From positions 6,396-70,395 of IMG/VR virus record IMGVR_UViG_2772190757_000004: 64,000 bases of DNA; one strand, 5' to 3'. This DNA is from a virus. Its lineage: Duplodnaviria > Caudoviricetes. The notes below the pieces were generated by a model, which saw only the letters and a list, made by a program, of their open reading frames with translations, was not told the DNA's origin and did no database searches. Positions 5,481 through 64,000 of this stretch are shown one piece after another; the stretch's first letter is position 1, and the number at the start of each line of letters is the position of its first letter. The translations under genes were made by a program, and so were the position numbers.

Positions 5481-5537
5481 TTACCCCTCCTCGTAAGCCA
5501 CCTCCAGCCGAGCGCCTGGAGTAATCGAGTAGGGGCG

Positions 5538-5792
5538 TCAGTCCTCCAGGCGGCCAGCGGCGTCGCCAGCAGCATCGCCGCCCAACAGGCTCGGAGTGCT
5601 CCGGTTACCGAATCCGCTGGAGGCCATTGAAATCAGAACGCTGGCCAATGTCGCCGTCCCCGCGATGCTGAGCGCCGACGCCCAGTCGATGTCTGTGATC
5701 GCGACGCCAACCGTCATCGACGCCAGCAGTGCCTGCGCGAACGTTTTCCCGGCACGCTCCGCCGTGTCGGTCCAAAACTTTGCAGTCCTCAT
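5538..5792 (-). CDS. Holin (r1t-like)
   Basis: MRTAKFWTDTAERAGKTFAQALLA...IDW...ATLASVLIS; ATGA-coupled to lysin. Confidence 0.85.
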   Translation of the reverse strand: MRTAKFWTDTAERAGKTFAQALLASMTVGVAITDIDWASALSIAGTATLASVLISMASSGFGNRSTPSLLGGDAAGDAAGRLED

Positions 5793-47514: not shown

Positions 47515-47679
47515 GGGAGAGGAGCCCTTCCATGTAGTCGGCGGCGGCGTCCTCGCATCCGGGAAACGCTTCGAACGACGCCCCATCGGCGATGCCGAAC
47601 CCGGCCTTCTCTGTCTCGTGGAACAGCCATGCCAAGAACCGGTTCGGGTTGAACCCCAGCGCCGAAAGTTCCCCGGACA

Positions 47680-47898
47680 TCAGACGGTCCCGTACGCGGG
47701 CAGTGACTTGATGTAGCGGTCGAGGCTCTCGCGCTCGTAGAGAGTCTTTGCACCTTCTTTGCGGCCGCAGATCACCTCTTCACGCAGAAGCGTCTCCAGC
47801 TTCCACTTCGACAGTCCCGTATAGGCTTTCGCGCCTTCGAGATCGAAGGTGATCGGCCGGATGTCGACCGCCGCGGTGGGCGTCAGGTCGTCGCTCAT
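47680..47898 (-). CDS. Excisionase-like HTH protein
   Basis: AKAYTGLS...GRKEGAKTLY.RESLDRYI. Confidence 0.75.
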   Translation of the reverse strand: MSDDLTPTAAVDIRPITFDLEGAKAYTGLSKWKLETLLREEVICGRKEGAKTLYERESLDRYIKSLPAYGTV

Positions 47899-48134
47899 GA
47901 CGCCTTCTTCCACAGCTCGGGATCCAGGAAGGCGTTGGGCGTGACGCCGAGCGTGCGGGCAATCGCCGCCAGCTCGTCGGTGTTGAAGGGGTTCACGCCG
48001 CGGAGGCGTCGATCCAGGGTCACCCTGGGGATCCCTGAAAGCTCGCCGACTTTGCTCACCGAGTACTCGGAGTCTTCGATCAGGGAATTGACTCGGGCTG
48101 ATATCTCCCGCGACCAAACTTCGCAGCCGTCCAT
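47895..48134 (-). CDS. Cro-like XRE protein
   Basis: SGIPRVTLDRRLRG..PFNTDELAAIARTLGV; divergent from repressor. Confidence 0.8.
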   Translation of the reverse strand: MDGCEVWSREISARVNSLIEDSEYSVSKVGELSGIPRVTLDRRLRGVNPFNTDELAAIARTLGVTPNAFLDPELWKKAS

Positions 48135-48267
48135 ATGGACGACTGTACGCCTATATGGACGGTTTGCAAGAGGGTAACGGCTTTGCATTTGGCACAGTTC
48201 GGTCAAGGCAGGCGACCAAGGACGCCCTAACGTCCTCTTGGGATCTGCCCATATGGGCGGCTAGCCT
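48128..48267. promoter_or_regulatory. Lysis-lysogeny switch: three operators and two leaderless promoters
   Basis: CGTCCATATGGACG 48128-48141, CGCCTATATGGACG 48148-48161, TGCCCATATGGGCG 48246-48259; minus-strand TTGCAA-16-TACAGT; plus-strand -10 TAGCCT. Confidence 0.8.
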
Positions 48268-48273
48268 GAATGC

Positions 48274-48708
48274 ATGGCCACCAACGCCCGCCCCGTAGGC
48301 GATCTCACCCGAGTGATCGCAGCCCACATACGGGCCACGCGCGCGGCGATCCCCATGCGCCAAGACGCCCTCGCCGCCGCCGCGGACATTCCCGTCGACA
48401 CCCTCAGCAAGATCGAGCGGGGGCTCGCCGCAATCGACATGGAGCAGCTAGCGCGGATCGCGGCGGCCTTCAAGCTCAGCCCCGACGATTTCATCGGGAC
48501 TGCGCTCAGCAGGGCCAACTGGCATCACGGAGGGCGCGCCCGCCACCTCCACCAAGTGCAGACCGCCGATCAGGAAGCCCACCCGAAGAACACCGGCAAC
48601 GGCGCCCTCCTCACCCCCAACGACGAGGAGGACGACGAAGTCGGAACCCCGTCCGAGGAGACGCTGCGGATCTTGCGCGCCGACGCCGAGGTGAACCCCG
48701 ACTCCTGA
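48274..48708 (+). CDS. Immunity repressor (XRE HTH)
   Basis: IRATRAA..MRQDALAAAADIPVDTLSKIERG...LARIAAAF. Confidence 0.85.
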   Translation: MATNARPVGDLTRVIAAHIRATRAAIPMRQDALAAAADIPVDTLSKIERGLAAIDMEQLARIAAAFKLSPDDFIGTALSRANWHHGGRARHLHQVQTADQEAHPKNTGNGALLTPNDEEDDEVGTPSEETLRILRADAEVNPDS

Positions 48709-49004
48709 CGCGTGTAGACCTCCGCGCACCAACCCAAATCGGGCACCAGTTTCCAGTGATGGTCACGCGGGCCGCGCGCCCAGACCCTATCGACCTTCGA
48801 TAAGAGCCGGCGCATCTGCTTCGGCGTCAGTCCGCAGCGCGGGATCACGGTCAGTCCCCGCGCGGTGATGCGTAGTCCGCCAATCACCAGCCGGCCGCCG
48901 CGGGACTCGATGTCCCCCTTCGGCTGGAGGATGCGGACGCCGATCGCCTGCATCAGCGCGGGATCGTAGAGCGGCCAGTCGGTTTGAGGTACTTCCTCTT
49001 TCAT
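48570..49004 (-). CDS. Hypothetical protein, weak resemblance to ImmA/IrrE N-terminus
   Basis: YDP...IGVRIL...GLTPKQMRRLL; no HEXXH; 3' end overlaps repressor. Confidence 0.35.
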   Translation of the reverse strand: MKEEVPQTDWPLYDPALMQAIGVRILQPKGDIESRGGRLVIGGLRITARGLTVIPRCGLTPKQMRRLLSKVDRVWARGPRDHHWKLVPDLGWCAEVYTRQESGFTSASARKIRSVSSDGVPTSSSSSSLGVRRAPLPVFFGWAS

Positions 49005-49762
49005 TGGTGAATCTCGGTTCGTCTGCCCCGAACCGCTGCGGTGAGCCCCGACAGACCCGCTGCGCCCGGTGTTCGCTGTATGTAACTGTGCATACGCGGG
49101 CACACAGCCGCTATCGACGGGCCGCTCCCACGCCATGCCGGGTACGTCCGATGCGCGACCCGCTCGAGCGCCCGGCTTCGTGAGCTGCTCCGCGGTCGCC
49201 GTCCCGGCGACAACACTTCACGTCGTTCGGTCAGCTACCAATGGGTGCTCGGTAGTTGAGGCGGTGAACTAGGTGAAGCCCCGACTATAGTCACGCCTGG
49301 CCGGGGCCTTCCAGCAGTTCGGAGGGTTTCGGCCCGGTTTATTGGATTGTGACCGGCGGTCATCGTATGCGCTAATCCTCAGCAAGCCTTCGTGTTTCGG
49401 ATGGGCAGTGGCACTACTGCGTCAAACGCGTTGACCCACCAGGGAAATCAGAGCCGACCGGGTCGTCTGTTGAGATGACGCCGATACCGACATGACGTGT
49501 CTTGTTAGCCACAGCAGCAACATTGCAGGCACGATCAGGTTTGCACGCTACGCGAGAAGTCTTGGAGCAGTGCACATTCAAACCAACCCCCCGGTTCATT
49601 CAACTTGGAGGGTTCGATCCGAAGCACGCAGTGCGCCAGGAGCGCGCCCGGGGCAACCGCGCGGCCGAACGCCCCCGCCCGCGACAGCGGCGTGTCCCAA
49701 TGAGCGACACCAGCACGCGCGTACCAACGGCTCCGTTTTCGATAGCTGGAGGAGCGCGGTCG

Positions 49763-49784
49763 TTTGGCTACAGTTTTGGCTACA
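49763..49784. repeat. Tandem TTTGGCTACA repeats (tyrosine integrase arm-type-like sites)
   Basis: 49763-49772 and 49775-49784, ~60 bp inside the tRNA 3' end. Confidence 0.6.
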
Positions 49785-49816
49785 CGTGACCGATCGGTCC
49801 GATTTCGATGCTCCTC

Positions 49817-49840
49817 CCCTCCCTGGTCAGGGAGGGTTTT
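49817..49840 (+). terminator. Hairpin with T-tract at tRNA 3' flank
   Basis: CCCTCCCTG-GT-CAGGGAGGG-TTTT. Confidence 0.65.
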
Positions 49841-49842
49841 CG

Positions 49843-49916
<74 letters not shown>

Positions 49917-50818
49917 AGGCATACGACATCTATGGGATCGCCACGATGTCGTGTGCGTTGAGACTGTACCGAACCCGGCTTCCCAAACGCCAATCAGCCC
50001 CCCGCGCAGTGCGATCACGCGGGTGCCGGGACGGTCGTCGTCGCAACGCCCGGCAGGAGTCTCGCACGGTACCGCCCCGGTCAACGCAGGGCGCGCAGAA
50101 CAGAACTAAATGAAATTAAAAGGGATCTCTTCCTTGAAACTCGGGCGTGTCGGACCGGAAACGGGGAGCATATGGTTCGCGTGACGACTCCTGTCGGGGG
50201 GAGCCGTGGCCCACGGGGTGGCCATTTGTCACGCTCGACCGGTCGCGGAGAGGATGCCACCCATGGGGACATCACGACTCGCCGCAAGGGCAGCAGCAGT
50301 TTCTTGTCAGCTGCCACCGACCGCCGAGTGTGCTACTGGCAGGAAAATCCGGCCCAACACCCTTACCGGGTCGAAGACTCGCGCATCCTCGGCTACTCCT
50401 CCGGCTACTTCGATGTCGAGGTCCGAAACATGGACCGGCGGCCGGCCAGCCCGGCCCCACGGCATCGAGGCATCGCGAGGGGTCGCGAGGACCCGTTCGG
50501 CGTGGCGCTACAGCGTGTCGCCAGCGGGTCCTGGCGCGACTTCACAGCGAACGAAATCCTGGTGTAACACTGGCGCGGCTGCTGCGATCACATACCCGAT
50601 CGCCATTCGCGAGGGATCGAGAACACGTTGTAAAACAGCGTTTTTCGATGCCGGGTGGCTTGCTAGGATCCTTTTTGCCGGACGGGGGTATCTGGAAAGG
50701 GGGCGGTGAGCGTGCACCGAGCGAGGTGGACCCAACCGCGTAGCAGTGCGAAGGATCGGGGTGAAACCGGCACCTGTGCCGGCGCCGTGCCGCAAGGCAC
50801 CGACGTTACCTGCGTCGG

Positions 50819-51778
50819 GTGAGTTCGATGTCGATCGATATCGAGCCCCCCGTCGCCGCGATGGCGCGCGCCTGGGCTCGTGCGGTGTGCGCCGAGCCGG
50901 GTTCCGGCGCGGCGCCGCAACAGCTGGAACCGGTACTGATCGAAATCGTCGACCGGCTGCTCACCCTGGCCCGGTCCGAGCCGTTCCCCGTGCCCGAGGC
51001 GCGGATGCTCGGCGCCCGGCTCGCCGAGGCGCCGTTCGACCGCATCCGGATGCTCGCGCAGGCCACCCGCTGGCTGCTCGGCTTCCCCTCCGGCGCGCCG
51101 GGCTCGCTGGTCGCCACCCGCTGGCCGTTCGTCGCGAGCCAGGCCATCGACAGCTACGCCCAGGCGCTGCAGGAGCGCGCGCTGGCACAGCAGGAACAGA
51201 ACCTGTCCGCCAAGGTGTCGCTGCGGGTCCAGGAGATCGCGGCGCTGCAGCATCGGCTGCGGCACGAGGCGACCCACGACGCGCTCACCGACCTCGCCAA
51301 CCGGACCCTGCTCCAGGATCGGGTCCGGTTGATGTCCACCGACCCGAACCGCGGCGTCGGCCTGCTGCTGATCGACCTCGATCGCTTCAAGCAGATCAAC
51401 GACGGCTACGGGCACGCGATCGGCGACGAGGTACTGGTCGAACTGGCCAACCGGCTACGCGAGGTGTGCCCGCCCGACACCGTGATCTGCCGGTACGGCG
51501 GCGACGAATTCGTGCTCGCCGTGAATCCGCCGCACAACACCCTCGGCGACCTCGCCCATCGGATCGTGGCCGCCCTGCGCGACCCCGTCTGGTCGACGGC
51601 GGGCCCGGTCCCGGTCTCGGCGAGCGTCGGCACTGCGTACTGCCCGCCCGGAAGTTCCTGCGATTTCAGTGATCTGCTGCGTCGCGCGGACCGCGCGATG
51701 TACTCGGCCAAGACGGCAGGCGGACGCCGCTTCGCGCTCGCCGACGAACCGGAGATCGACACGGCCGTCGCCGGATAG
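50819..51778 (+). CDS. Diguanylate cyclase (GGDEF)
   Basis: ATHDALTDLANR, IDLDRFKQINDGYGH..GDEVL, RYGGDEF, SASVG, ADRAMY.AK. Confidence 0.92.
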   Translation: MSSMSIDIEPPVAAMARAWARAVCAEPGSGAAPQQLEPVLIEIVDRLLTLARSEPFPVPEARMLGARLAEAPFDRIRMLAQATRWLLGFPSGAPGSLVATRWPFVASQAIDSYAQALQERALAQQEQNLSAKVSLRVQEIAALQHRLRHEATHDALTDLANRTLLQDRVRLMSTDPNRGVGLLLIDLDRFKQINDGYGHAIGDEVLVELANRLREVCPPDTVICRYGGDEFVLAVNPPHNTLGDLAHRIVAALRDPVWSTAGPVPVSASVGTAYCPPGSSCDFSDLLRRADRAMYSAKTAGGRRFALADEPEIDTAVAG

Positions 51779-51793
51779 GACGGCCGTGCCCGG

Positions 51794-52117
51794 CTAGTCC
51801 GGCTGGCAGGTGGGGCACCAGAAGAGATTTCGTGCTTCCATGACGGCATGGGCTACGGGGGTGCCGCAGCGACGGCAGGCAGCGCCCTGGCGACGATAGA
51901 CGTAGGTGCGCGGGCGGTCCGGGGCGTAGGACGGTTCCCCGTGATCGTCCTCGGGCCGGACCACGACCATCTTGCCGACCCGCACGCCCACCTTCATCAA
52001 CGCGACCAGATCGGCCCACATCGCGTCCCACTCGTCGGCGGACAGCGCGGTGCCCGGCCGGAACGGCGAAACGTGGTGCCGGAACAGCAGTTCCGCCCGG
52101 TACACGTTGCCGACCCC
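51794..52117 (-). pseudogene. nei: 3' half of host Fpg/Nei DNA glycosylase gene, interrupted by element
   Basis: GVGNVYRAELLF...CRRC...WCPTCQ; homology stops abruptly at 52118. Confidence 0.9.
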
Positions 52118-52123
52118 GGTCGG
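52110..52123. other. Serine recombinase att junction
   Basis: CCGACC-CC-GGTCGG inverted symmetry around a central dinucleotide exactly at the nei breakpoint. Confidence 0.75.
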
Positions 52124-52542
52124 TATTGAATTAGTTCACCCTATCTGACCAGCGGAAATGATGCAACAGCGACCGGGCTCCCCGGATTGGACGCCGCGCG
52201 GCATCCAAGGAGTTCAGGGTTGGAAGAAGTTGGCGATAACAGCAAGCAGTTGATGTCATACCTACCGCAGTCCACGGAACCGGAACTACAGGCAACCGAC
52301 GGTGGAACGACGGTAGGATGCTCGCCAGCTCGTGCCGCGCGTCGCTCACCAGGCTAGACCGTTCCCGTATCCGATACTGATGGTCGCTCCATCGCTTCGA
52401 CGAGCAAGCGGTGACACCAGACAGCGCTGCCGCATGTTTCGCGATAGACCACGATCCGGCTACAAGGAGGACCATCATCTACGAAACGTCCGCAGTCGTG
52501 GTACCAGACCTGACTGAGAACGCTCCCGATACTATCACTGCC

Positions 52543-54876
52543 GTGGCTAACGAGCGCATCACCGAGGACATGGTCGACGGCATCCTCCGCAAGCTAGGCT
52601 TCTACGACCAGCCAGAGGAAGTATTTGTAGAGAAGCAGCAGAGCGAGGTGGCTGCGATTCGAGCAATCTTAGCCAAAGCAAGCAAGACCGGCAAAGGTGG
52701 AGCTGGCTATCCTGAGTTCATCATCACTGAAGCGGCCACTCCGGACGTAGTTGTCGTCATCGAGTGCAAAGCCTCCACTCGTCAACATGTATCAAAAGAC
52801 CGGAATCGTCCAGTAGATTACGCCGTTGATGGCGTACTTCATTACGCCCTGGCATTAAGCAGCAAGTACTCCGTAATCGCAGTTGCGGTAAGTGGAACCC
52901 CGCAATCTAACCGCTGGTCGACGTTCCTAATCCCCCAAGGACAACAGGAGCCACGATCTTTGATCTCCCCCACCGGGGCGGAAATCAATGAACTGGTTCC
53001 CATGCACGATCTCGTAAAGGCGGCCGCATACGACCCCGCCGTCAGATTAAAACGGTCTTCAGACCTGATTGCATTTAGCCAAGAAATGCATCGGTTCATG
53101 CGCGACGAAGCCGAGCTTGAGGAAAAAGAGAAGCCACTCACCGTTGCGGGCACGCTCCTCGCATTATCCAATAGGACATTCGCGCGCACCTATCAGGAGT
53201 ATCCAGCACACGAACTGCCAGGCTACTGGATGGAAACTATCATCAAGGAAGCCAAGGCAGCGAAACTCCCGGTGCCGAAGATCAAGAACATGACGCAACC
53301 CTTCAGCGCAATCGAAGTGCACCCGGAGTTGCGTAAATCATCAAAGACTTACCCCAAGGGTCTGCTAAACGCGATCATTACGATGTTGGCGGATCAGGTT
53401 CTCCCATTTCTCACCATTTATCACGATTTCGATGTCGTGGGCCAGTTCTACGGCGAATTTTTGAAGTACACAGGTGGAGATGGCAAGGGTCTCGGCATCG
53501 TTCTGACTCCGCGCCATCTCACCGAGCTTTTCGTTCTCATCGCCAATGTAGACAAGAGCGATATCGTCCTTGATACATGCGCGGGTACAGGTGGATTTCT
53601 AATCAGCTCAATGATGAAGATGATCGGAAATGCTACAACCGAAGCCGAAGTCGAAGACATCAAAAAGAACCGTTTGATCGGCATCGAGCAACAGGCAACG
53701 ATGTATGCACTTGCGGCATCGAATATGATTCTTCGTGGCGACGGAAAGGCCAACCTTCATCAAGGATCCTGCTTCGATAAGGGAATAACCCAGGAAGTAC
53801 AGTCTCACAAACCTACGGTTGGCCTCATAAACCCGCCTTACGCAAAATCAAAGGCCGACCTTCATGAGCTGCGATTCATCGAGCATATGCTGGACTGCCT
53901 AGAGCCGCACGGGCGCGGTGTGGCCATCGTGCCAGTCTCATGCGCTACGACGCCGAGTATCCATAAATCCAATCTCATGAAGAAGCATACGCTGGAAGCT
54001 GTCATGAGCATGCCACCGGAGATATTTCACCCCGTTGGCGTAATTACTTGCGTCATGGTTTTCACTGCAGGAGTCCCACACGAAAGGTCGGGCAGAAAGA
54101 CTTGGTTCGGCCTTTGGCGCGAGGACGGATACGTCAAGGTAAAGAACCATGGCCGGATCGATCGCGATCACCAATGGCCGAAGATTCGCGATCGTTGGAT
54201 CGAGATATTCCGCAATCGAGAGGTTCACGATGGTGAATCCGCAATGCGCCGAGTGGGCCCAGACGATGAGTGGATCGCTGAAGCATACCTGCAGACAGAC
54301 TACACCACCCTTTCAAAAGGGGAAATCACCTCCGTACTACGAGATTACGCAATGTTCGCGCTGGGCGGAGACGAAGAGCATGACTCGGACCCAATACGCG
54401 GAAACTCCGACAAATGGCTACAGTTTAAACTTGGAGACATCTTCGAGATCCACAAAGGTCGTCGGGTTACAAAAGCAGACCGGAGTTCTGGAACAACACG
54501 CTTTATTGGCGCATCCGAAAGGAATAATGGCGTTACCGATATGGTCAGCCTGGCTCCGATTTTTGATTCAGGAGCGATCACAGTGCCATACAATGGCGCT
54601 TCGGTCGGATGCGCCTTCTATCAGGATAAACCGTTCTTCGCCTGCGACGATGTCAATGTCTTGGTTCCCAAGGATGAACAGGATAAGTTGGCCTTGCTAT
54701 TTGTGGCAGGAGTAATTCGACATGGCAGAGGTCGATTTACGTATGGGTACAAGTGGACGCTCGAAAGGATGAAGGAGAGCACCGTACTTCTTCCGTCGAC
54801 AAATGATGGCAAGCCCGACTGGAAGAGAATGTCGCAGATTGCACGAGAGTTGCCCTTCGGTGGTGCAATCTCGTGA
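52543..54876 (+). CDS. BcgI-alpha-like restriction-modification enzyme (REase + N6-adenine MTase) fused to one TRD
   Basis: MANERITE, GYPEFII..IECKA, DVVGQFYGEFLKY..LGIVLTP, DTCAGTGGF, NPPY, C-terminal FKLGDIFEIHKG TRD; -10 TACTAT shortly upstream of GTG. Confidence 0.85.
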   Translation: MANERITEDMVDGILRKLGFYDQPEEVFVEKQQSEVAAIRAILAKASKTGKGGAGYPEFIITEAATPDVVVVIECKASTRQHVSKDRNRPVDYAVDGVLHYALALSSKYSVIAVAVSGTPQSNRWSTFLIPQGQQEPRSLISPTGAEINELVPMHDLVKAAAYDPAVRLKRSSDLIAFSQEMHRFMRDEAELEEKEKPLTVAGTLLALSNRTFARTYQEYPAHELPGYWMETIIKEAKAAKLPVPKIKNMTQPFSAIEVHPELRKSSKTYPKGLLNAIITMLADQVLPFLTIYHDFDVVGQFYGEFLKYTGGDGKGLGIVLTPRHLTELFVLIANVDKSDIVLDTCAGTGGFLISSMMKMIGNATTEAEVEDIKKNRLIGIEQQATMYALAASNMILRGDGKANLHQGSCFDKGITQEVQSHKPTVGLINPPYAKSKADLHELRFIEHMLDCLEPHGRGVAIVPVSCATTPSIHKSNLMKKHTLEAVMSMPPEIFHPVGVITCVMVFTAGVPHERSGRKTWFGLWREDGYVKVKNHGRIDRDHQWPKIRDRWIEIFRNREVHDGESAMRRVGPDDEWIAEAYLQTDYTTLSKGEITSVLRDYAMFALGGDEEHDSDPIRGNSDKWLQFKLGDIFEIHKGRRVTKADRSSGTTRFIGASERNNGVTDMVSLAPIFDSGAITVPYNGASVGCAFYQDKPFFACDDVNVLVPKDEQDKLALLFVAGVIRHGRGRFTYGYKWTLERMKESTVLLPSTNDGKPDWKRMSQIARELPFGGAIS

Positions 54877-54921
54877 CCTACCGTGCGGGCCACGCGTCAG
54901 GATGTGATGTGACGGACACTC

Positions 54922-55734
54922 ATGCCTGAGGGCCATACCCTGCACCGCTTAGCGAAACTGCACCACAGACGATTCGCTGGCGGAGTGGTTCGAATATCGA
55001 GCCCCCAAGGGCGTTTCGCCGACGGCGCAGCGTTGATCGACGGGCAGATGCTGACCCAGGCTGACGCCTGGGGTAAGCATCTCCTGCACCATTACGCATC
55101 GGGGCTGGTCGTGCATGTACACCTCGGGCTGTACGGCAAGTTCACCGAATCTACTGCACCCTTTGGCGATCCGGTCGGGCAAGTGCGTATGCGGATGATT
55201 GGCGCGGGCCGGTCCGGCGAGGTCTTCGGTGCCGATTTACGTGGCCCTACCGCGTGCGAGATCTTGCATGAATCTGAGGTGGAAACCCTCGTCGCCCGCC
55301 TCGGCCCGGATCCGTTGCGCCGTGATGCCGACCCGGACCTCGCCTGGCAGCGCATTCGCCGCTCTCAGCGTCCCATCGGCGCACTGCTCATGGACCAAGG
55401 CGTCATTGCTGGAGTTGGCAATGTATATCGCGCTGAGCTGCTGTTCCGGCATGGTATTTCCCCGCATCGTCCCGGCCGTGAGGTGTCGACGGGAGAGTGG
55501 GGCGAGCTTTGGGCCGACTTGGTGGAGTTGATGCAGGTTGGAGTGCAACGCGGCAAGATGCACGTGGTTCGGTCCGAACACGACCATGGCGCACCGTCCT
55601 ACGCCGCTGACCGACCGCGCACCTATGTATACCGCCGTGTCGGCGAACCCTGCCGCCTGTGCGGGACGACAGTCCTCCACGCGGTGATGGAGAGCCGAAA
55701 CCTGTTCTGGTGCCCCACCTGCCAGCCCTGCTGA
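54922..55734 (+). CDS. nei: Fpg/Nei family DNA glycosylase (element-borne intact copy)
   Basis: MPEGH catalytic N-terminus, GKHL, HLGLYG, LGPDPL, GVGNVYRAE, C4 zinc finger. Confidence 0.93.
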   Translation: MPEGHTLHRLAKLHHRRFAGGVVRISSPQGRFADGAALIDGQMLTQADAWGKHLLHHYASGLVVHVHLGLYGKFTESTAPFGDPVGQVRMRMIGAGRSGEVFGADLRGPTACEILHESEVETLVARLGPDPLRRDADPDLAWQRIRRSQRPIGALLMDQGVIAGVGNVYRAELLFRHGISPHRPGREVSTGEWGELWADLVELMQVGVQRGKMHVVRSEHDHGAPSYAADRPRTYVYRRVGEPCRLCGTTVLHAVMESRNLFWCPTCQPC

Positions 55735-55767
55735 ACCTACAACGAGCGCCCGCCTTGGCGCTGGGCA

Positions 55768-56250
55768 TCAATTGCGGGCCGCACCGCTCGGCCAGACGAT
55801 ATCGACGGGAAGGTTCTTCCCCCTCGCGAGTTCCACGACTGTGGCGGTGCCGCCTTGCTCGCTGGGCTGACCGTCCCATACCGCGATCAGCCGGTCGCAC
55901 GTTCCTACGACGGCCTCGTTGGCTGCCTCGTAGGCTTGCGTGCCCGCATCGTCGAAGTCCATTACGCGCACGGTTTCCGCGCGCGACATCAGAGTGTCGA
56001 ACTGTTCGGCGTGGTCCGGCTTGACCTTGCGCTCCCGGTAGTTGCGGGACGGCAGAACAACTTCCAGTCGCCCACCGGCATCGAGCACGGCTTGCGCGAA
56101 GACGCTGTCGGCCCCGCGCGCGATACAGCTGACACCGATCAGTTCGGCTGGATCTCCTGCGGCGGCCAGGATGCGGGTGATCTCCGCGTAGACCAGCGGG
56201 ACCGAATCCGCGGTGATGTTCATGTGCCCGGTGACGCCGATGCGAGTCAT
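55768..56250 (-). CDS. SLOG-superfamily (YpsA-like) protein
   Basis: IGVTGH, SCIARGAD..FAQAVL, AYEAAN, LIAVWDG..GGTA.VV. Confidence 0.8.
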   Translation of the reverse strand: MTRIGVTGHMNITADSVPLVYAEITRILAAAGDPAELIGVSCIARGADSVFAQAVLDAGGRLEVVLPSRNYRERKVKPDHAEQFDTLMSRAETVRVMDFDDAGTQAYEAANEAVVGTCDRLIAVWDGQPSEQGGTATVVELARGKNLPVDIVWPSGAARN

Positions 56251-56258
56251 GCCCTTCT

Positions 56259-57667
56259 CTATACCGGGTCGGCGACCAGCACGCGCATCCTGTCCCGCAA
56301 CTCGGCCACCGCGCGAACGTCCGCCACATACTCGGTGCGCGCGAACATCTCCCGCAGTTTGACCCGCACGCGATCGGAGGCGGTCTGTTCGACGGTGGAC
56401 AGGGCGGCGTGCCCCAGTCGGCACGCTTCCTCGAGCTCGCCCTGGATCAGACGGGCCTCCGCCAGTCCGAGTTGGTCCAGTGCAGTACTGCGCAACCGGT
56501 TGGGTTGCCGCAACACGATCGCCTTGTCGATCTGCTCGGCAGCCTCGCTCGCGAATTCTGGTGCGCGCTGCGCCATTTCGAGGAGACGACCGCCGATGGT
56601 GCCTGCCATTTCCGAGGCGTCGAAGTAGCCGATCCAGTAGGGGTCGATCGTCGGTGTTGCCTCGGCCATGGTCTCCTGGGCTCGATCGCAGGCGCGGTGG
56701 AATGCCGAGGGGCGATCGAGGTGGGCATAGGCCCACGCTTCGCGGGTGCGCAGCATGGCTTGGACAGTCGGTGTCGCCGCAGCTGCCTGATCCTGTGCCA
56801 GGCGCACGAGTTCCAGAGCATCGGCGGTTCGGCCGAGATACAGCAGTTGTCGCGCCATGCCCGCGAGAGAGTTGGCGGCGAAGGCCGAATCACCTGCCGC
56901 GCGTGCAGCCCGGACTGCGAGCACGTAGTAGCGCTGGGCAGCGGCTTGCTGTCCGGAATCCCACGACATCGTCGCCACGGTTTCGGCGAGATGAGCAAGC
57001 ACACCTGTGAGACGACGGCGAACTTCCGGCGGCTGAGTCTGCGTGAGCAGTTCGTTGACCTCGTTGAGTTGGCCGATGACGGCTTTGCGTCGCAGTCCCC
57101 GCCGTACTGGTCATCCCACTCGCGAAATACTCGGGCGGCCATCTCCAACTGCTCGACTTCCTGCACCCCGATTCGGCACGCCGAAGTCACTGTCGGAGTG
57201 GCGGACTGGCCGGTTCCATAGAGCAGCCAGCGTTCGAGCGGTTCAAGCAGGTTGGCTCCGACGACTACCCCAAGCAGAGCGCGGGTGGCTTGGCGGCGAT
57301 CCACCATCAGGTCCTTTCGGGTGAGGTCATCGGCAATCGCCGTGCAGTCGGCGGTCCACACGCCCGGTTCCCACTGTGCGGCAATGGAATCGGCCGGATC
57401 ATCGGTATCACCGGGGAGAACGATCTGAATGCGATTCTTCTTGGCGGCCAGGAATTTGGCGCGCTGCTGTGGGGTAGCGCGCGTGAGGTGGGTTTCCATC
57501 AGCTCGCCGAAGAACGACGGCAGCGTAACCGTGGTCCCGCGTCGCGCCCACTTCTTTACCGTGCTCAACGCGACGCCGGTGCGCTCGGCGAACTCGGGTT
57601 GGGTGACCCCGAGCGCTATGCGCAGCGCGGTTGCGTCGGCACCTGTCCATGCCTCTTGCATACCCAT
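56259..57667 (-). pseudogene. XRE-HTH plus TPR-like regulator, frameshifted in a G-run
   Basis: WTGADATALR..TQPEFAERTGV; adding one G at 57097-57100 gives DDQYGGGLRRKAVIGQL, joining the TPR-like C-terminal ORF. Confidence 0.75.
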
Positions 57668-57803
57668 TACCTCACCTGTGCGGGGAGATGCGTGAACCGA
57701 GCGTATACCCGCGTGCACTGGCGTCACCTTCAATCACGGCAAACCCGGAGACACGCTGGTCACAGCGCCAAATCTGACCGAGCAGAATCCGAAGGAGCCC
57801 GAC

Positions 57804-57977
57804 ATGGAAGTCATCCTCGCCATCACATTGGCTGCCATGGTGATGCTCGCGGCAGCTCTATCATCCAGCCGCGCAACCCATCCGGCGCAGCACCGAGCCG
57901 GGGCCAGCGTTGCCGACATACAGGCACGCCTTGCAGCAGAGCGCCGACGTGCATATGAGCCAACCAGGCGGTGGTGA
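57804..57977 (+). CDS. Small membrane-anchored protein
   Basis: RBS AAGGAG; MEVILAITLAAMVMLAAAL...SVADIQARL. Confidence 0.55.
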   Translation: MEVILAITLAAMVMLAAALSSSRATHPAQHRAGASVADIQARLAAERRRAYEPTRRW

Positions 57978-57979
57978 CG

Positions 57980-58324
57980 ATGTTCGAAACCCCGAGGGCC
58001 ATAGGCTATTTGCGCAGCGATGTGTCCGGAGCACGCCAGCAGTGGGAAGAAATGCAGAACCGCAGCCTCGCCAAACGGCTCGGCTACACGCTCGCGAAAA
58101 CCGTCGTGTTCAGCGAGCACATCGAAGACCCCATCCAACGGCTGATCAACGTCGTCCGCCGGATGCGCGCGGAGGCGGTGGTCGTGCCGAATCTGGAGCA
58201 CTTCGGCGGAACGGTGCCCGACGAGCTGGTGCGGGTGGTCGATGTGATCACCGTCGATCCGCACGACACCTACGCACGCTGGATCATTCCGCCGGACACG
58301 ACCATTGAAATGCGGTCACGGTGA
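57980..58324 (+). CDS. Resolvase N-terminal-like small protein
   Basis: AIGYLRSDVSG...LAKRLGY...EAVVVP.LEH. Confidence 0.6.
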   Translation: MFETPRAIGYLRSDVSGARQQWEEMQNRSLAKRLGYTLAKTVVFSEHIEDPIQRLINVVRRMRAEAVVVPNLEHFGGTVPDELVRVVDVITVDPHDTYARWIIPPDTTIEMRSR

Positions 58325-58734
58325 CGGCCGCCTTGGTCCCGATATCGCCGCCGCGCGGTACCTACGATGTCGGTGTCCGCTGCTTCCTCGGGCTGCGCCG
58401 ATTCGCGCGAGAGGCGGGCGTGCCCTATGACCGGCTCCAGCGATGGCGCGTGCACGGCCCGTACTGGGTGCCGCCGCCAGTAGTCATGATCGGCCGTTGG
58501 CCGGGATGGACGCTGCCCATGATCCAGACGTGGGCACCGATCGTCGTAGCCGGTGCCGGACCAGTTCCACCGGAATGGCGCTGGCCTGAGCCGACGATCG
58601 ATGCGGCGGACTCGGTGACCATGTGCCGCCGCCATGGGATCGCGCACGCGGGGCTCTGGCTGCGGATCAGTCGCGGCGACATTCCGCGCCCGGACATCTG
58701 GGTTGATGACAAACCCGGCTGGATCACCCAGTGA
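58321..58734 (+). CDS. Hypothetical protein with duplicated AlpA-like motif
   Basis: VPPPVVMIGRWPGW and IPRPDIWVDDKPGW repeats. Confidence 0.5.
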   Translation: MTAALVPISPPRGTYDVGVRCFLGLRRFAREAGVPYDRLQRWRVHGPYWVPPPVVMIGRWPGWTLPMIQTWAPIVVAGAGPVPPEWRWPEPTIDAADSVTMCRRHGIAHAGLWLRISRGDIPRPDIWVDDKPGWITQ

Positions 58735-59440
58735 GCCGGGGCTAGTTCACGCGGTCACAGCCCGTCCTGCACCGGAATCCGACACTGCGACGGTCCCCCG
58801 ACACCTCGGGGTTCCGCTGACCTCGACCGAGAGGTGCTCGAGCAGCACCGCAAGATGTACTGCCACAACCGAATGAATCCGGACGAGAACTACCGGGTTC
58901 TACGCGAGCCCCCAGCCTCGAGGCTGGGGGCTCGCCCCATGTGTAGGTCATACCAACCGGTGTCCCGATCGTTTTGTGATCCGGTGTCGCAAAACAGGCC
59001 CCCCCCCGTGCAACTACCGGGCGAGAGGACTTAGCGAATTCGCCGGGAAGGAGGACCGCTGTGTCATATCGCGCGAGAAGTCGGACGCCGTGGTTAGGAG
59101 CAGGTCAGGAGGGGTGTCCCGCACCCTTCCGATCGGTTGTCGAACGTTGGGGAGCTCCTGCCTTTGCTGAGGACACGAGGAGAAAAGAATGCCGACGAGC
59201 CGAGGAGGTTGCGATGCGTGAAGTTCGGCGCAGCGTTCGGTGCCGGTGGTCGATGGGCCGCCCGGCGCGCGGTGGTGGGGCGGGCGCTATCCCAATCTTT
59301 ATCCCGTCCTACCCGGATTTTCAGGCAGCGGGGTGCCAGTACTGGGTGCACGAGAAATCTACGGCCACGATCCGAGGAGTAGCCATGAGCAAGGTCCCTC
59401 CGTCTATCCCGTGTCAGGTGCGCTGGCGGGAGGCATTCGC

Positions 59441-60607
59441 ATGATCATGCAGCTCGGTCGGAATCTCGATGCGTTCGTCCAGGGACTGTCCGCCGGAGTC
59501 TGGCGGCTGATCAACCTGGGCTGGCGGTGGCTGGTCATCGCCGCCGTGGTTTTCGTTCTCGCGCGGCTGGTGCTGGGCTGGCTGGTCGGCTGGTACCGCT
59601 GCCGGGAGGCGCGGGAGGCGGTGTGGTTGCAGGTCACCGTGCCCGCGACGATGGGCCGGGATGCGGGCGAGCGGTTCGCCCGGTCGCTGGCCGGCATGCT
59701 GCACCGGACTCACCGCCGGCCGTGGCGGGCGCGGCATGTGGCGTGTGAGTTCTTCGCCACCGACGACGCGACGACGGTAGGGCTGTGGGTGCCGCCCGCG
59801 TTCGCGCCGAAAGACGTTCTTGCCGCCATTCTCGGCGCGTGGCCCGGCGCGCAGGTCGAACAGGTGACCCCACCGCCGACGCTGGAGGGACGCGGTGGGG
59901 TGTGCGGGCGAGAGATCGCGCCGCGCGCTGGGGAATGGTCACCGCTGGTGGACGCGACCGCCAGGCGGGTGGTGGACGCGGACGACTACGACCCGTTGGG
60001 GCAGGTGCTGACCGCACTGGCCGAACGCGGGCCGGGTGAGACCGCCGTCGTTCAGGTGATCGTGGCCGCGCAGCGCGGCACGGGTTCCCGCGGCTTGGGT
60101 GTGCGGGTGCTCGACGGTACCGGCGGGCTGTGCCTGTGGCTGCTGCGGGAACTGCTGGACTTCCTTCAGCCCGGCCCGGCCCCTGCCCGCACCGGTTATC
60201 GTGCGCGGAGTACGCAGGATCCCGATCCGGTTGCCGCGCAATGGTTTCGAGACGTCGTGGTCAAGAAGACGGATCGGCAGCATCTGCGGGTGACCGTGCG
60301 TGCGGGTGTGGCGGGGTCGGTCCCGGCCCGCTATCGGCGCGGTGCGGTCACGCGGCTGACCGATGGCTATGACCAGGTTGTCACCGCTGGTGACGGCCTG
60401 ATCACGCGCAGGGTCGCGCGCGCCGCGCGGCGTATCGCCGCCCGGCGGCCGGGGCCGGGATTCGTCGCCACGGTCGCCGAACTCGCCGCGCTGTGGCATC
60501 TCCCGGCCCATGGCGGCACCTACGGCATGGACACCAGCCCCGCCCGCACCCGCGCCGCCGGACGCCGCGCCCCGCGCATCCCCGACTGGAAGGACGATCA
60601 GCAATGA
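59441..60607 (+). CDS. Membrane protein associated with coupling ATPase
   Basis: N-terminal TM, WLQVTVP, HVACE, AWPGA, DPL..VL.AL, ELAALWHLP; ATGA-coupled to T4CP. Confidence 0.65.
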   Translation: MIMQLGRNLDAFVQGLSAGVWRLINLGWRWLVIAAVVFVLARLVLGWLVGWYRCREAREAVWLQVTVPATMGRDAGERFARSLAGMLHRTHRRPWRARHVACEFFATDDATTVGLWVPPAFAPKDVLAAILGAWPGAQVEQVTPPPTLEGRGGVCGREIAPRAGEWSPLVDATARRVVDADDYDPLGQVLTALAERGPGETAVVQVIVAAQRGTGSRGLGVRVLDGTGGLCLWLLRELLDFLQPGPAPARTGYRARSTQDPDPVAAQWFRDVVVKKTDRQHLRVTVRAGVAGSVPARYRRGAVTRLTDGYDQVVTAGDGLITRRVARAARRIAARRPGPGFVATVAELAALWHLPAHGGTYGMDTSPARTRAAGRRAPRIPDWKDDQQ

Positions 60608-62034
60608 ACGACTCGCCACGCTTCGACAAGCCCGCGAATCCCGATGACAACACGCAGCCTTCGGGCGATCACCCGTTGGTGAACCGGCTACGGCTGGCCA
60701 CACCAGACGACGTGCGCCGCCAGTCACCCAAGCCGCTGGGACTGGCCACCGATGGCGACATGATCGGGTTGACGGTGGCGGGCGCACGCCATCACGTCCA
60801 TGTGCCGGGGGTGACCGGTTCCGGGAAATCGACGTGGCTGGCCAACCTGACGCTGGCCGAGGCCGCCGCCGGGCGTGGGGTGGTGTTGCTGGACTGCCAG
60901 GGCGATCTGGCCAACAACGTGCTCGCGCGGCTGCCCGCGTATGCGGCCGAACGGCTGGTGATCTTGGACCCGGCCGAACGGGACGCGCCCCCGGCGTGGA
61001 ACGTGCTCGCCGCCCCCGCCGGGCTGGCCGATGACCTCGAGGGCCGCGAGTTCGCGGCCGAGACCGTGATCGGCACCTTCCGCAAACCCCACGCCCAATG
61101 GTGGGGACCGCGTATGGAGGAGATCTTCCGGGCGGCGTGCTTGACTGCGGCCCGCCGTCCGGGCTCCACCCTGGCCGATGTGATACCGCTGCTGACCGTG
61201 CGCGGCCATCACCGCGCCATCACCACCCGCTACGGGGAACCTGGTGGGTTCGAAGGGTTTTGGAGCGGCTACGACGCTTTGAGCGACCCGCAACGCCAAC
61301 AGCTGTACGGGCCGGTGGTCTCACGGTTGCGGTCGGTGCTGTCGCACCGCTTCGCCGGGGATCTGCTCGCGGCCCCGGCTTCCACGTTCGACCTGACCGA
61401 AATCCTGAACGGCGGAATACTCATCGCCCGAATCCCCAAGGGCGAGATCACCGACTACGGCAGTCAACTCGTCGGGTCGCTGCTGTTGTCGGGGTTGTGG
61501 TCGGCGATCACCCGCCGCGCCGGACTATCACCCGATCAGCGGCTCGACGCGACCATCATCGTGGACGAATGCCACAATTTCCTGCATTTACCGATCGGCG
61601 TCGATGACGCCTTGGCCGAGGCGCGCGGCTATCGGGTGTCGCTGGTCCTCGCGCACCAGCACATGGCGCAATTGCCGCCGGAAATGCGGGAAGCGATCGA
61701 CGCGAACGCCCGCAATAAGATCGTGTTCACCGTGTCTCCGGACGACGGCCGGAAATTCGGGCCGCATTTCGCGCCCTATTTTCAGCCAGCGGATCTGTCG
61801 AACCGGCCCGGCTACGAAGTGACCGCGCGTATCATTCATGACGGCAGAGCCTTTCCGCCGTTCAGCCTGGACACCGTGCCATTACCGTCCGAAATAGCGG
61901 GACGCGCGGACGAGTTACGGACTGCGGCACGGAATTTGACCGGCCTCTCACAGCAACAGCGGACGCTACTTAAACACCGGACCGAATTGTCGGACGCGTA
62001 TAAACGCAAATTCGATCCAGGGTCGGCAGCGTGA
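60604..62034 (+). CDS. VirD4/TraD-like type IV coupling ATPase
   Basis: HVHVPGVTGSGKST, LLDCQGDL, IIVDECHNF, EARGY..LAHQ. Confidence 0.85.
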   Translation: MNDSPRFDKPANPDDNTQPSGDHPLVNRLRLATPDDVRRQSPKPLGLATDGDMIGLTVAGARHHVHVPGVTGSGKSTWLANLTLAEAAAGRGVVLLDCQGDLANNVLARLPAYAAERLVILDPAERDAPPAWNVLAAPAGLADDLEGREFAAETVIGTFRKPHAQWWGPRMEEIFRAACLTAARRPGSTLADVIPLLTVRGHHRAITTRYGEPGGFEGFWSGYDALSDPQRQQLYGPVVSRLRSVLSHRFAGDLLAAPASTFDLTEILNGGILIARIPKGEITDYGSQLVGSLLLSGLWSAITRRAGLSPDQRLDATIIVDECHNFLHLPIGVDDALAEARGYRVSLVLAHQHMAQLPPEMREAIDANARNKIVFTVSPDDGRKFGPHFAPYFQPADLSNRPGYEVTARIIHDGRAFPPFSLDTVPLPSEIAGRADELRTAARNLTGLSQQQRTLLKHRTELSDAYKRKFDPGSAA

Positions 62035-62036
62035 GG

Positions 62037-62111
62037 CCATTGGGTTTCCCAATGGGTGTCCCACAGCCCTCCCGTTGGGTGTCCCGCTTAAGAGTGGGAC
62101 ACCCAACGGGA
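62037..62111. promoter_or_regulatory. Inverted-repeat cluster, candidate oriT/nick site
   Basis: 16-bp perfect IR 62070-62085/62096-62111; 8-bp IR 62037-62055; TGGGT(G/T)TCCC iterated. Confidence 0.6.
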
Positions 62112-62159
62112 CACTCCCGGTCAACCATCACCCCAGCTCGGCAACGGAGGCGGCTCGCC

Positions 62160-63023
62160 ATGACGAAACCCCCACTGGCTTCTATAGCCACCCGACACAG
62201 GATCACCACCGCCGACGCCATCACCACCCAACGACAACTCACCTCCCGCGATATCGAGCTATTGGAATTGCTCGACACTCATCACGTTCTCACTTCCACG
62301 CAGATCGCGCGGTTGCTGTTCGCCAGTGAGAACGTGGCACGGAAACGGCTTGCCAAGCTCACCGCACGCGGCGTGATCGGGCGCTTCCGGTCATGCCCCG
62401 GCCCCGGCACCCTGCCGTGGCGCTACACCCTCGGACCGCTCGGCGCGATGATCATCGCCGCCAGCCACGGGCACACGCTGCCCACCGCCAGCAAAACACA
62501 CGAGAAAATGCTCCGACTATCCCGATCCCAGCGACTCGATCACCTGCTCGGCATAAATGAATTCTTCTCACACCTGAAATTCGACGCGCGAAACAAGGAC
62601 GGCCAGGAGCTTCTGGAATGGTGGAACGAACGCGACACGGCCGAAATCTGTGCGAACATCGTGCGGCCTGACGGATACGGCCACTGGGAAGAACACGGAA
62701 AACGGATACGCTTCTTCCTCGAATACGACAACGGCACCGAGACGATAGAAGAACTCGTAGGCAAGCTCGGCCGATATCGAGAATTGGCACAAGCAGGAAT
62801 GAACCTGCCGGTGCTCTTCGTATTCACCGGAGAGCTGCGGCAGAACAACTTTCATCGCCACCTCAGCGCACAACCCGCGCTCACCGCCGGACTCGCCGTG
62901 GCGAGCACGGCAACCGGCGATATCGACGCCATGAGCCCAGCGGGGCCCGTGTGGCTGCCCGCTGGCAGCCACGACCGCCAACGGCTGATCGCACTCACCG
63001 AACCCACGGCACTCGCCGCCTGA
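62160..63023 (+). CDS. Replication-relaxation family protein
   Basis: LTSRDIELL..H.VLTSTQI, HLLGINEFF, VRPDGYG, FFLEYDNGTE..L.GKL.RY. Confidence 0.85.
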   Translation: MTKPPLASIATRHRITTADAITTQRQLTSRDIELLELLDTHHVLTSTQIARLLFASENVARKRLAKLTARGVIGRFRSCPGPGTLPWRYTLGPLGAMIIAASHGHTLPTASKTHEKMLRLSRSQRLDHLLGINEFFSHLKFDARNKDGQELLEWWNERDTAEICANIVRPDGYGHWEEHGKRIRFFLEYDNGTETIEELVGKLGRYRELAQAGMNLPVLFVFTGELRQNNFHRHLSAQPALTAGLAVASTATGDIDAMSPAGPVWLPAGSHDRQRLIALTEPTALAA

Positions 63024-63041
63024 TCGAAAGGGACAGCGACT

Positions 63042-63236
63042 ATGCCCGAGGACACCCCCGCACAGAACGAAGGCCCGGCCGACCAGCCGGGCACCGAACC
63101 CGATCAGCTCAGCTTCGACGCCGAACTCATCGACTACTGGCGGGGAATCACCTCCCGATTCCCCGCCATGAACGACGAACACTTTGCCGCCGTCGCCGCC
63201 ATAGTCCGCAAAATCGACGAGCGTCGGGCAGCCTAG
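63042..63236 (+). CDS. Small hypothetical protein (possible recombination directionality factor)
   Basis: 64 aa with RBS, convergent with and overlapping the recombinase stop. Confidence 0.45.
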   Translation: MPEDTPAQNEGPADQPGTEPDQLSFDAELIDYWRGITSRFPAMNDEHFAAVAAIVRKIDERRAA

Positions 63237-64000
63237 CTCTTCCCTCTGTTCTTCTTCTTGACGTCCTCGATCGCAATCCGGCCCGGGTCGAAATGAGCGC
63301 GCCCATTGCGTACGGCTGTCTTGATCACGACTCGCTTCCCGGTAAGCGCTTGGCGGAACATTCCCCGTTTCTCGGTTGTGGTAGCCGCCTTCCATCGGGC
63401 CGTCCATTCATCAAGCGATGCCTTTGCGTCTTCCGCGGATACAGGACCGTCCGGGACGGTGCCGATCTCGTCGAGCTTGGCATTCAATTCGGCAATCTGC
63501 TGTTCCAAGGGGTCCATGGCCGCGTCGTACCGGGCCACGGTTATCTGGCGGCGGCCCAACCTCTTTGAGAGCTCGAGGGCCAACTGCTCGCACTCAGCGC
63601 GTTCCGCCATGAGGGGTCGGCGCGCTTCCTCGATGGCTTTGGATGCTGCCTCCACCGCCTCGGCGTGACGGGGGTCTGCCAGGATGCCAACAACGATCGC
63701 GCCTATGTGCTTGTCCAATTCGCGCTGGTCGATGGTGATCTTGCCGCAGCCGCCATTAATCGCACGCTTCTGACACCAGTATTGCCGCCGCATCTTTCCA
63801 TCCGGGTAGGGCCGCAGATTGGCTTTGGGCCGCCCGCTGAGGTGATGCCCGCAGAGGTCGCAGAACACGAGCCCCGAGCACAGATAGGTTTCCGAGTTCG
63901 GTCGGCCCCGTTGCCGGGATGCGAACAGCGCCATGAGCCTGTCCCAGTCCTTTTCGGCAACGATGGGCGTGCCCGCTGCCTTCGCAACGATCTCACCCAT
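63233..64000 (-). CDS. Large serine recombinase, C-terminal part
   Basis: PIVAEKDW, YLCSGLVFCDLCG, YWC..GGCGK zinc ribbon, coiled coil, W..ATTTEKR. Confidence 0.88.
   Translation of the reverse strand: MGEIVAKAAGTPIVAEKDWDRLMALFASRQRGRPNSETYLCSGLVFCDLCGHHLSGRPKANLRPYPDGKMRRQYWCQKRAINGGCGKITIDQRELDKHIGAIVVGILADPRHAEAVEAASKAIEEARRPLMAERAECEQLALELSKRLGRRQITVARYDAAMDPLEQQIAELNAKLDEIGTVPDGPVSAEDAKASLDEWTARWKAATTTEKRGMFRQALTGKRVVIKTAVRNGRAHFDPGRIAIEDVKKKNRGKS

Follow-up and report, generated by a model that had tools for sequence, protein, structure and literature searches.

The DNA examined here, a stretch of 64,000 nucleotides from IMG/VR virus record IMGVR_UViG_2772190757_000004 (the window), carries in its right-hand part most of an integrative element that interrupts the DNA-repair gene nei. 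The window corresponds to C4:40678-104677 of genome G000, an assembly of 9.38 Mb in 74 contigs (labels beginning with G denote genomes, and those beginning with L denote loci around a related integrase or nei gene). Its host is an actinomycete that most likely belongs to the genus Nocardia, because the junctions found in 12 genomes of the same genus match named Nocardia records exactly. The evidence makes it probable that a large serine recombinase (LSR) element split the native nei gene, that it carries a full-length nei of congeneric origin that compensates for the loss, and that it is now locked in.

The events leading to this arrangement can be proposed as follows. Recombination of attP with attB by the LSR would have inserted the element into the Ala-Gly-Val codons (GCC GGG GTC) of the nei H2TH motif, thereby cutting the rpiB-linked nei in two, with two foreign codons now closing its 5' half. 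A complete nei from another species of the same genus would have come along with the element, and most probably makes up for the Nei activity lost through the insertion. Synonymous respelling of the site in the cargo gene that is equivalent to att should keep the element's own recombinase from cutting it, which would be protective because attP might otherwise recombine with an attB within the element itself. The inverted orientation of the cargo relative to the host halves would leave homologous recombination unable to delete the element, and later frameshifts in the integrase and in a regulator gene would have fixed it in place.

The split nei gene and the copy carried by the element

The 3' fragment of nei lies at window positions 51794-52117 on the minus strand, where a first-pass annotation of the sequence had located it, and encodes the C-terminal 107 residues, with matches to positions 38-88 of the Pfam H2TH profile and to the Fpg zinc finger. 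The displaced native half itself (codons 164-270 plus the stop) is assigned to 51794-52111. Finding the missing 5' half beyond the recombinase had been set beforehand as a test, and a whole-genome tblastn search recovered it. Residues 1-165 are encoded at C4:105417-105911 (minus strand; window-equivalent 64740-65234), starting 740 bp past the end of the window; this coding sequence shares its strand with the 3' fragment and immediately follows rpiB (window-equivalent 65247-65828, minus strand). When the halves are joined in silico, they meet in frame and give 270 codons with a single terminal stop, which equals the length of the orthologs.

In G023, the closest relative sampled, the order GGDEF-nei-rpiB-M48-DsbA has no interruption. 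Its DNA is 87-92% identical to the left flank of the window, with 92% nucleotide identity between its nei and the 3' half, and the alignments end at window position 52114. The GGDEF diguanylate cyclase gene of the host flank (50819-51778, plus strand; Pfam GGDEF, E 2e-38) shares 95% identity with its counterpart next to the uninterrupted nei of G023. Because the empty site in this relative is uninterrupted and the alignment stops at the junction, the split gene is the native nei and the 12.6 kb between its halves is an insertion. Congeners were sampled for nei first in 24 genomes, every one of which has one intact nei (24/24), and then in a genus set of 267, where the gene was found in 266. 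More than one nei match (E <= 1e-30) was obtained for nine genomes, and a lone 5' half is among the extra matches in G000 only.

The insert measures 12,628 bp between equivalent bases of its two junctions, both of which lie inside a 642-kb contig and have in common the 8-bp core CCGGGGTC. On the coding strand of nei, the left junction reads ..GTC GCC GGG GTC followed by AGCGTATAATTAGTTACACC.., and the right junction is ..GGGTGAACTAATTCAATACCGA CCGGGGTC followed by GGC AAC GTG... Within the window, attR (52112-52141, minus strand) consists of the core (52112-52119) and the element-side P arm GGGTGAACTAATTCAATACCGA; beyond the window, attL (window-equivalent 64720-64747) consists of the P' arm and the core. 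The nei 5' half reads ..AGV-S-V-stop into this P' arm, which in the present element is non-coding. The cut had initially been placed in the motif GVGNVY, and it does fall in the H2TH motif, but the crossover lies in the Ala-Gly-Val codons before GNVY, the residues GV being the repeated core.

The ends of the element form an imperfect inverted repeat (AACTAATT, 24 nt, AATTAGTT) that centers on the first GG of the core, which we infer to be the crossover dinucleotide. Each attP arm is present once in the genome when up to 2 mismatches are allowed, and an unintegrated attP of like build precedes a related integrase in the viral contig L115. In place of long direct repeats, the att sites have a short core and an attP with imperfect inverted arms beside the integrase gene, whose start is 47 bp from the core. 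This junction anatomy is that of a serine integrase and not of a target-site duplication.

The element encodes a full-length nei ortholog at 54922-55734 (plus strand, opposite to the split halves), much as first described. All three Fpg/Nei domains of the 270-residue product, the N-terminal glycosylase domain (PF01149), H2TH (PF06831), and the zinc finger (PF06827), score above cut-offs. The protein starts with MPEGHT and has four Cys in the finger, which we take to be catalytic and structural residues. It is identical to the rejoined host protein at 200 of 270 positions (201/271 with the stop codon; 568/813 nt) and to the 3' fragment at 79 of 107, a recount that agrees exactly with the earlier manual one. 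The earlier view that this gene, with its opposite orientation, is not a target-site duplication also stands. Its neighbors are a type IIG restriction-modification gene and another open reading frame (ORF) of the element.

Several features mark a well-conserved gene that was acquired from within the genus. The cargo nei retains 118 of the 120 residues that are invariant in 25 genes of the genus and all 81 of those invariant in 30 genes of the order, and its identity to the chromosomal nei genes of the 266 congeners does not exceed 83%. A maximum-likelihood tree places it within the genus clade (support 100/100), nested among chromosomal nei genes of other species in a subclade apart from the host copy, and the split host nei pairs with that of G023 (100/96). 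The GC content at third codon positions is 0.71 for the cargo gene, 0.87 for the host copy, and 0.86 for the orthologs on average. On this sequence evidence, the cargo nei came from the chromosome of another species in the same genus and is now the sole intact Nei1-type gene of this genome. A scan for promoters and terminators around it gave counts no higher than those in shuffles.

The spelling of the cargo gene is unusual at the position where the host gene was cut. The att site of the host nei reads GTC GCC GGG GTC GGC AAC GTG TAC, and the equivalent site of the cargo reads ATT GCT GGA GTT GGC AAT GTA TAT. Compared with attB, the cargo site has 20 differences in 75 nt, which exceeds the values for all 28 chromosomal orthologs (range 5-19). 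Moreover, the 10-codon stretch over this site has the most A/T-ending codons in the gene (8/10).

A large serine recombinase had been recognized at the far end of the element, and its C-terminal part does occupy 63233-64000 (minus strand) and run off the window, with the gene continuing to window-equivalent 64692. The upstream ORF has a resolvase domain (PF00239, E 3.7e-16, residues 8-153) that includes a YARVSR stretch aligning with homologs, and the second ORF has the zinc ribbon (PF13408, Zn_ribbon_recom). Between them, the Recombinase domain (PF07508) is matched at profile positions 3-52 and broken by a frameshift near 64050. Together, the two overlapping ORFs, of 329 and 276 codons, cover homologs of 488 aa from end to end, but the N-terminal 214 and C-terminal 272 codons lie in different frames, leaving no intact frame of about 490 codons. 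Forty related integrases, by comparison, are single frames. Random indel errors should be rare in this assembly, because it contains stop-free frames of up to 15,688 codons, with 670 kb in frames of at least 1,500 codons. The frameshifts in the integrase and in an NsdA-family regulator gene of the element (described below) thus appear to be real, and an assembly error is unlikely.

Related integrases, recurrent spare copies, and nei as a hotspot

Scans built on an alignment of full-length homologs gave related integrases at 30 loci from genomes, 28 from metagenomes, and 3 from viruses, and domain calls on the ORFs of the present element drew on Pfam, NCBIfam, PADLOC, and PHROG. A scan with the L020 integrase matched 6 of 401 Pseudonocardiaceae genomes, which appear to be among those already included and added no new case. 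Nearly all related junctions end in ..GCCGGGGT(C), corresponding to the codons x-Ala-Gly-Val. The targets include the rpiB-linked Nei, a Nei2-like paralog, a C52-type Fpg-family paralog (L003), the rnc-linked MutM/Fpg (L062), MmyB-like helix-turn-helix (HTH) regulators, and a gene ending GFGSTARLLAGV. An MmyB-like regulator is the target in 12 of 13 Nocardia loci, and the remaining locus is cut by a contig end. In the integrase tree, the present protein pairs with a MutM-targeting one (94/82), beside the Nocardia HTH-targeting clade, and Nei targeting has at least two origins.

The clade thus makes use of a single GC-rich core, which codes for the turn in both H2TH and HTH motifs. The first-pass annotation had supposed that a universally conserved repair-gene motif was being used. 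The core does lie in the H2TH motif, but the DNA core GCCGGGGTC is present only in some nei alleles and occurs in HTH regulators as well. In the MmyB-like regulators, the insertion falls in the HTH turn (..GLRREELAxLAG|), with junctions about 50-70 nt before the integrase start (L006, L014, L015, L019, L021, L023-L026, and L101-L113). The core codons x-Ala-Gly-Val (GCCGGGGTC) are, in this sense, a common landing site in unrelated DNA-binding folds.

Full copies of the split paralog are also found at other loci. In L020, the 5' half of a host Nei2-like gene, attL, and the integrase precede a full-length Nei2-like gene, which is encoded on the opposite strand and is 82% identical to that half, and an attR-type junction with the 3' half is located on another contig of the same genome. 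In L029 and L031, decayed integrases adjoin intact, inverted copies of the same paralog, and 55 residues remain of the host gene in L031, to which the copy there is 85% identical. All four cargo copies, including the present one, are inverted (4/4), and all four lack GGGGTC, a sequence present in 9 of the 10 split targets compared (the tenth, in L002, reads GGGATC). The L031 copy groups with Pseudonocardiales host genes in the tree and the present cargo with Nocardia genes. Separate captures are indicated because these two Nei1-type copies are not sisters.

The co-occurrence of a split target with a full copy of the same paralog was counted after the decayed or short loci L029, L031, L083, and L088 had been relabeled by reading. 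When loci other than the present one are considered, a copy is present at 3 of 18 Fpg/Nei-targeting loci versus 0 of 43 with other targets (Fisher p=0.023). The counts become 4/19 versus 0/43 when G000 is included (p=0.007) and 3/9 versus 0/22 among loci where 4 kb or more follows the integrase (p=0.019). The co-occurrence that had been proposed for testing across homologous recombinases is seen at these 3 of 18 loci.

Some of these loci have further peculiarities. A second integrase of the same clade stands right after the cargo glycosylase gene in L020 (6348-7494, N-terminally truncated) and in L029 (7383-8016), such that two recombinase genes surround the spare copy. In L013, one open frame of 653 codons (9476-11437, plus strand) runs through the nei 5' half and the integrase without a stop at the junction. 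The corresponding attR, with the 3' half, is found on a separate large contig (L125 about 5300-5699), meaning that either the element is very large or the chromosome has been rearranged.

Islands at the nei locus are also evident in other members of the genus. G012, G091, G153, G170, and G176 each have rpiB and a full nei, then an island of 1.5-6 kb that lacks an integrase, and then one to three orphan nei 3' halves (L090 9013-9360; L091 2162-2503; L092 2366-2713 and 4000-4347; L093 2498-2845; L094 2330-2668). The orphans comprise 105 residues, lie on the same strand as the full nei, and retain open frames. Every orphan is preceded by the P arm of the present attR, readily recognized in G012, G091, G153, and G176 and degenerate in G170, with no P' arm left; the same P arm occurs in G042:C8. 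Some of the islands carry homologs of element genes, such as orf117 (83% identical) and the regulator (81-91%) in G012. Degraded nei pieces are also present on other contigs of G161 and G175.

Close relatives among these genomes share their nei 5' halves (99.4% for G012/G176 and 95.2% for G153/G170) and differ in their 3' halves, with the nucleotide differences jumping at the att core (nt 477-495). The pattern indicates that nei is a hotspot in the genus. Because the exchange of 3' halves between close relatives falls precisely at the att core, it also indicates that element-borne nei 3' sequence has repeatedly replaced that of the host at the core. Homologous recombination was rejected as the source of the restored nei genes in these congeners, given that the breakpoints are at the att core. 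Likewise rejected was the possibility that the P' arm itself encodes the nei 3' half, given that the P arms of the orphans match the present one, whose P' arm is non-coding.

Two other genomes have irregular nei genes. G071 yields two full nei matches with equal scores (C1:3248348-3249157 and C12:2889-3698), which represent a duplication or an assembly repeat. In the genome of L011, the rpiB-linked nei (L124 4063-4874) is in two frames with an apparent frameshift near codon 145, and a second partial nei (residues 133-258; L124 8404-8781) without a recognizable P arm lies 3.5 kb downstream.

A more general rule can be formulated in which elements of this clade that split an Fpg/Nei gene bring their own spare, with a full copy of the same paralog being repeatedly captured from a host chromosome, inverted, and respelled at the core to escape the element's own integrase. 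Taken together with the 3' swaps in the five congeners, such a rule would make the nei of Nocardia and Pseudonocardiaceae a mosaic under constant reconstruction by its parasites. This generalization is possible but must be regarded as tentative, and is somewhat more likely to fail than to hold.

Alternative explanations

It is conceivable, if rather unlikely, that the cargo nei compensates for nothing and is a passenger, acquired accidentally or through the recombination that goes on at the hotspot. In that case it would be neutral or have some other use, such as repairing the DNA of the element. Element-borne nei sequence does move around in the genus, as is evident from the orphan halves and the 3' swaps in the five congeners described above. 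Furthermore, about half of the related elements that can be checked genome-wide carry no spare, and the genome has three other Fpg/Nei paralogs. Against this, the paralog carried matches the paralog split in two families, Nei1-type and Nei2-like, and no Fpg/Nei gene is present in the 43 loci with other targets. The strong conservation of the cargo gene (118/120 invariant residues) also argues against this explanation, as does the fact that site-specific accretion moves 3' halves only and not a full gene with its 5' catalytic half.

Several observations nonetheless weigh against compensation as the role of the cargo nei. Because of the three other Fpg/Nei paralogs, which were found by a whole-genome search of G000, loss of nei would perhaps be tolerable without a spare. 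With regard to the respelled site, the enrichment of A/T-ending codons (Fisher p about 0.001) was evaluated post hoc in a stretch chosen after looking at the data, and 14 of 24 chromosomal nei genes of the same genus are without GGG in the middle core codon. The co-occurrence counts are small and derive from loci that are related to one another, and with raw automatic target labels they are 1/14 versus 2/45, which is not significant. In addition, both halves and no full copy of the same paralog genome-wide are found in the isolate G043, whose prophage in M. globbae (L016) is in a Nei2-like gene, and in G042, the metagenome-assembled genome of L013. The metagenome-assembled genomes G041 and G044 have the 5' half only, and no copy is present within 10 kb after the integrase in L011, L013, L016, and L062. 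The spare is thus facultative and not general. Finally, because the integrase is frameshifted, the element is probably immobile and locked in, and would represent no present-day strategy in this genome.

The first-pass annotation had interpreted the locus as a target-and-complement strategy, and this proposal survives in a narrower form. A matched, inverted, and core-changed copy is seen again in L020, L029, and L031, where it arose independently, but such a copy is absent from G043 and G042, and the present recombinase is frameshifted. The spare may keep base-excision repair in the host intact, as that annotation had supposed.

The arrangement might instead be a regulated gene-integrity switch, in which conditional excision restores nei, as with the skin and fdxN elements or SpyCIM1 in mutL, and the cargo copy is incidental. 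The split is clean, both halves are undecayed, and the rejoined gene retains 120 of the 122 residues that are invariant in leave-one-out comparisons. The best NCBIfam matches of the recombinase are XisF-type, which is also in keeping with a switch. The frameshift in the recombinase and the complete cargo nei, which makes restoration unnecessary, render this explanation very improbable. The last possibility is that an inversion, which the earlier annotation had named as a refuting case, or another rearrangement has relocated the native nei to 54922, or that the arrangement is an assembly chimera. It can be dismissed with near certainty, because rpiB and the GGDEF gene stand beside the halves as in G023, the cargo shares no more than 74% identity with the halves, belongs to another subclade, and is flanked by element genes, and the junctions are inside the 642-kb contig with attP arms that are also seen in other genomes.

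Element genes and comparison with known systems

The remaining genes of the element, whose GC content is ~0.65, begin with that for a type IIG restriction enzyme-methyltransferase of 821 aa with a fused specificity domain (52411-54876, plus strand; PADLOC PDLC03608, E 2.3e-103). The PADLOC REase_MTase_IIG match covers residues 48-650 and the specificity domain residues 668-810, and Pfam assigns N6_Mtase and Methylase_S. This gene has a GC content of ~0.52 and no homolog in any related locus compared, and it looks like a recently acquired defense gene. To the right of the cargo nei, an ORF of 164 codons (55768-56260, minus strand) has no Pfam, NCBIfam, PADLOC, or PHROG match, and homologs that are 71-73% identical adjoin the orphan nei halves in G012 and G153. 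It is followed by the frameshifted gene for an NsdA-family HTH/TPR regulator (56259-57733, minus strand), which matches positions 200-432 of the NCBIfam profile NF053720 in one frame and positions 7-167 in another. The homolog in G012 is a single open frame, to which the element gene aligns in two frames. Two small ORFs without a family match (117 and 137 aa; 57971-58734, plus strand) have homologs in G012 (orf117, 83% identical) and G176 (orf137, 67% identical).

A conserved backbone is located toward the integrase. It comprises an ORF of 455 codons with no family match (59240-60607, plus strand), a coupling-protein-like ATPase resembling TrwB/VirD4 (60493-62034, plus strand; Pfam TrwB_AAD_bind, E 3.9e-08; TraG-D_C, E 4e-04; phrog_5156, E 5e-37), and a Replic_Relax replication/relaxation protein (62031-63023, plus strand; PF13814, E 8.7e-43). 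The order integrase, Replic_Relax, ATPase, and 455-codon ORF is kept in L018 and L065, where the Replic_Relax protein is 50-58% identical and the 455-codon product is 38-50% identical. With regard to mating-pore genes, no VirB4-type or FtsK-type transfer gene was recognized among the ORFs of the element, four of which are without a family. The gene content is consistent with an integrative element that is putatively conjugative or mobilizable.

Outside the element, a scan of window positions 46000-64000 with Rfam and for tRNAs gave a tRNA-Gly as its sole match. This tRNA-Gly(tcc) lies at 49843-49916 (minus strand), left of the GGDEF gene, in a stretch with a GC content of 0.62-0.63 and no convincing ORFs nearby. 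No sequencing runs containing the locus were found, with at most 0.10 of sampled words present in any listed run and no RNA run among them.

Regeneration of a split target is an established phenomenon. The elements e14 and phage 21 integrate into icd, and the split target is regenerated from element sequence. Islands in tRNA and tmRNA genes (Islander) are likewise reported to regenerate their split target from element sequence (PMC4383910). As in these systems, a conserved gene is split in the present case, replacement sequence is supplied, and a displaced fragment marks the island end, and the orphan nei 3' halves of the congeners fit the Islander pattern. Islander and icd elements rely on a short in-frame duplicate at the junction and mostly on tyrosine integrases, whereas the G000 junction restores nothing, such restoration being seen in the congeners only. 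Instead, a separate, complete, and inverted gene with a changed att site is present inside an LSR element.

Gene-splitting LSR elements are also well known, and include skin (SpoIVCA), the fdxN element (XisF), SPbeta, and phages that integrate into comK or groEL1. Like skin, fdxN, SPbeta, and surveyed LSRs, the present element is integrated inside a protein-coding gene and has a short core flanked by attP inverted repeats. Elements of the skin, fdxN, and SPbeta type leave the gene broken or restore it by excision, and none of them is described as bringing a full spare of its target, in contrast to the present element. A mobile element within a DNA-repair gene has a precedent in SpyCIM1, whose excision from mutL of Streptococcus pyogenes toggles repair and a mutator state, but the spare in the present case should prevent a repair defect. 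Accretion of integrative and conjugative elements (ICEs) and cis-mobilizable elements (CIMEs) in Streptococcus thermophilus involves a tyrosine recombinase and a gene 3' end. The congeners similarly have integrase-less, att-flanked islands and tandem arrays, as in the orphan arrays of G153 and G176, but an LSR needs attP and attB, and accretion by an LSR is not an established route.

Published surveys of related elements were also considered. Related LSRs have been noted to target the same gene clusters (Durrant et al. 2022), and the word "glycosylase" does not occur in the main text of that survey, supplements aside (PMC10083194). Serine-recombinase elements of Corynebacterineae integrate into protein-coding genes (Ghinet et al. 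2011), and the passages concerned contain neither a nei target nor a spare copy (PMC3218068). The actinomycete ICEs treated in those passages have a RepSA/FtsK-type gene set, as distinct from the backbone of Replic_Relax and a TrwB-like ATPase in the present element. A literature search, supplements aside, returned nothing on a serine recombinase element in nei or fpg or on a complete spare of a target gene. Overall, target regeneration and gene-splitting LSR elements are already known, and the separate, complete spare is what sets the present case apart.

Known ways of limiting the damage from insertion are the targeting of gene ends, the provision of a short duplicate of the displaced piece, and excision on cue. 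If the compensation proposed here is correct, then a complete, separately encoded, and att-immune spare would be a fourth way, and one that would suit serine integrases, which are unable to build a restoring duplicate into the att site. It would explain how such elements can land well inside a conserved repair gene and yet not turn the host into a mutator. An inverted spare with a respelled core would, moreover, constitute a rule that could be screened for across thousands of catalogued serine-integrase elements. The recombinase clade itself is a natural series of integrases that have one core (GCCGGGGTC) and differing flanking targets, a point of interest for studies of integrase specificity. 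For the host, the outcome would be the horizontal replacement of a housekeeping repair gene, driven by the gene's own parasite.

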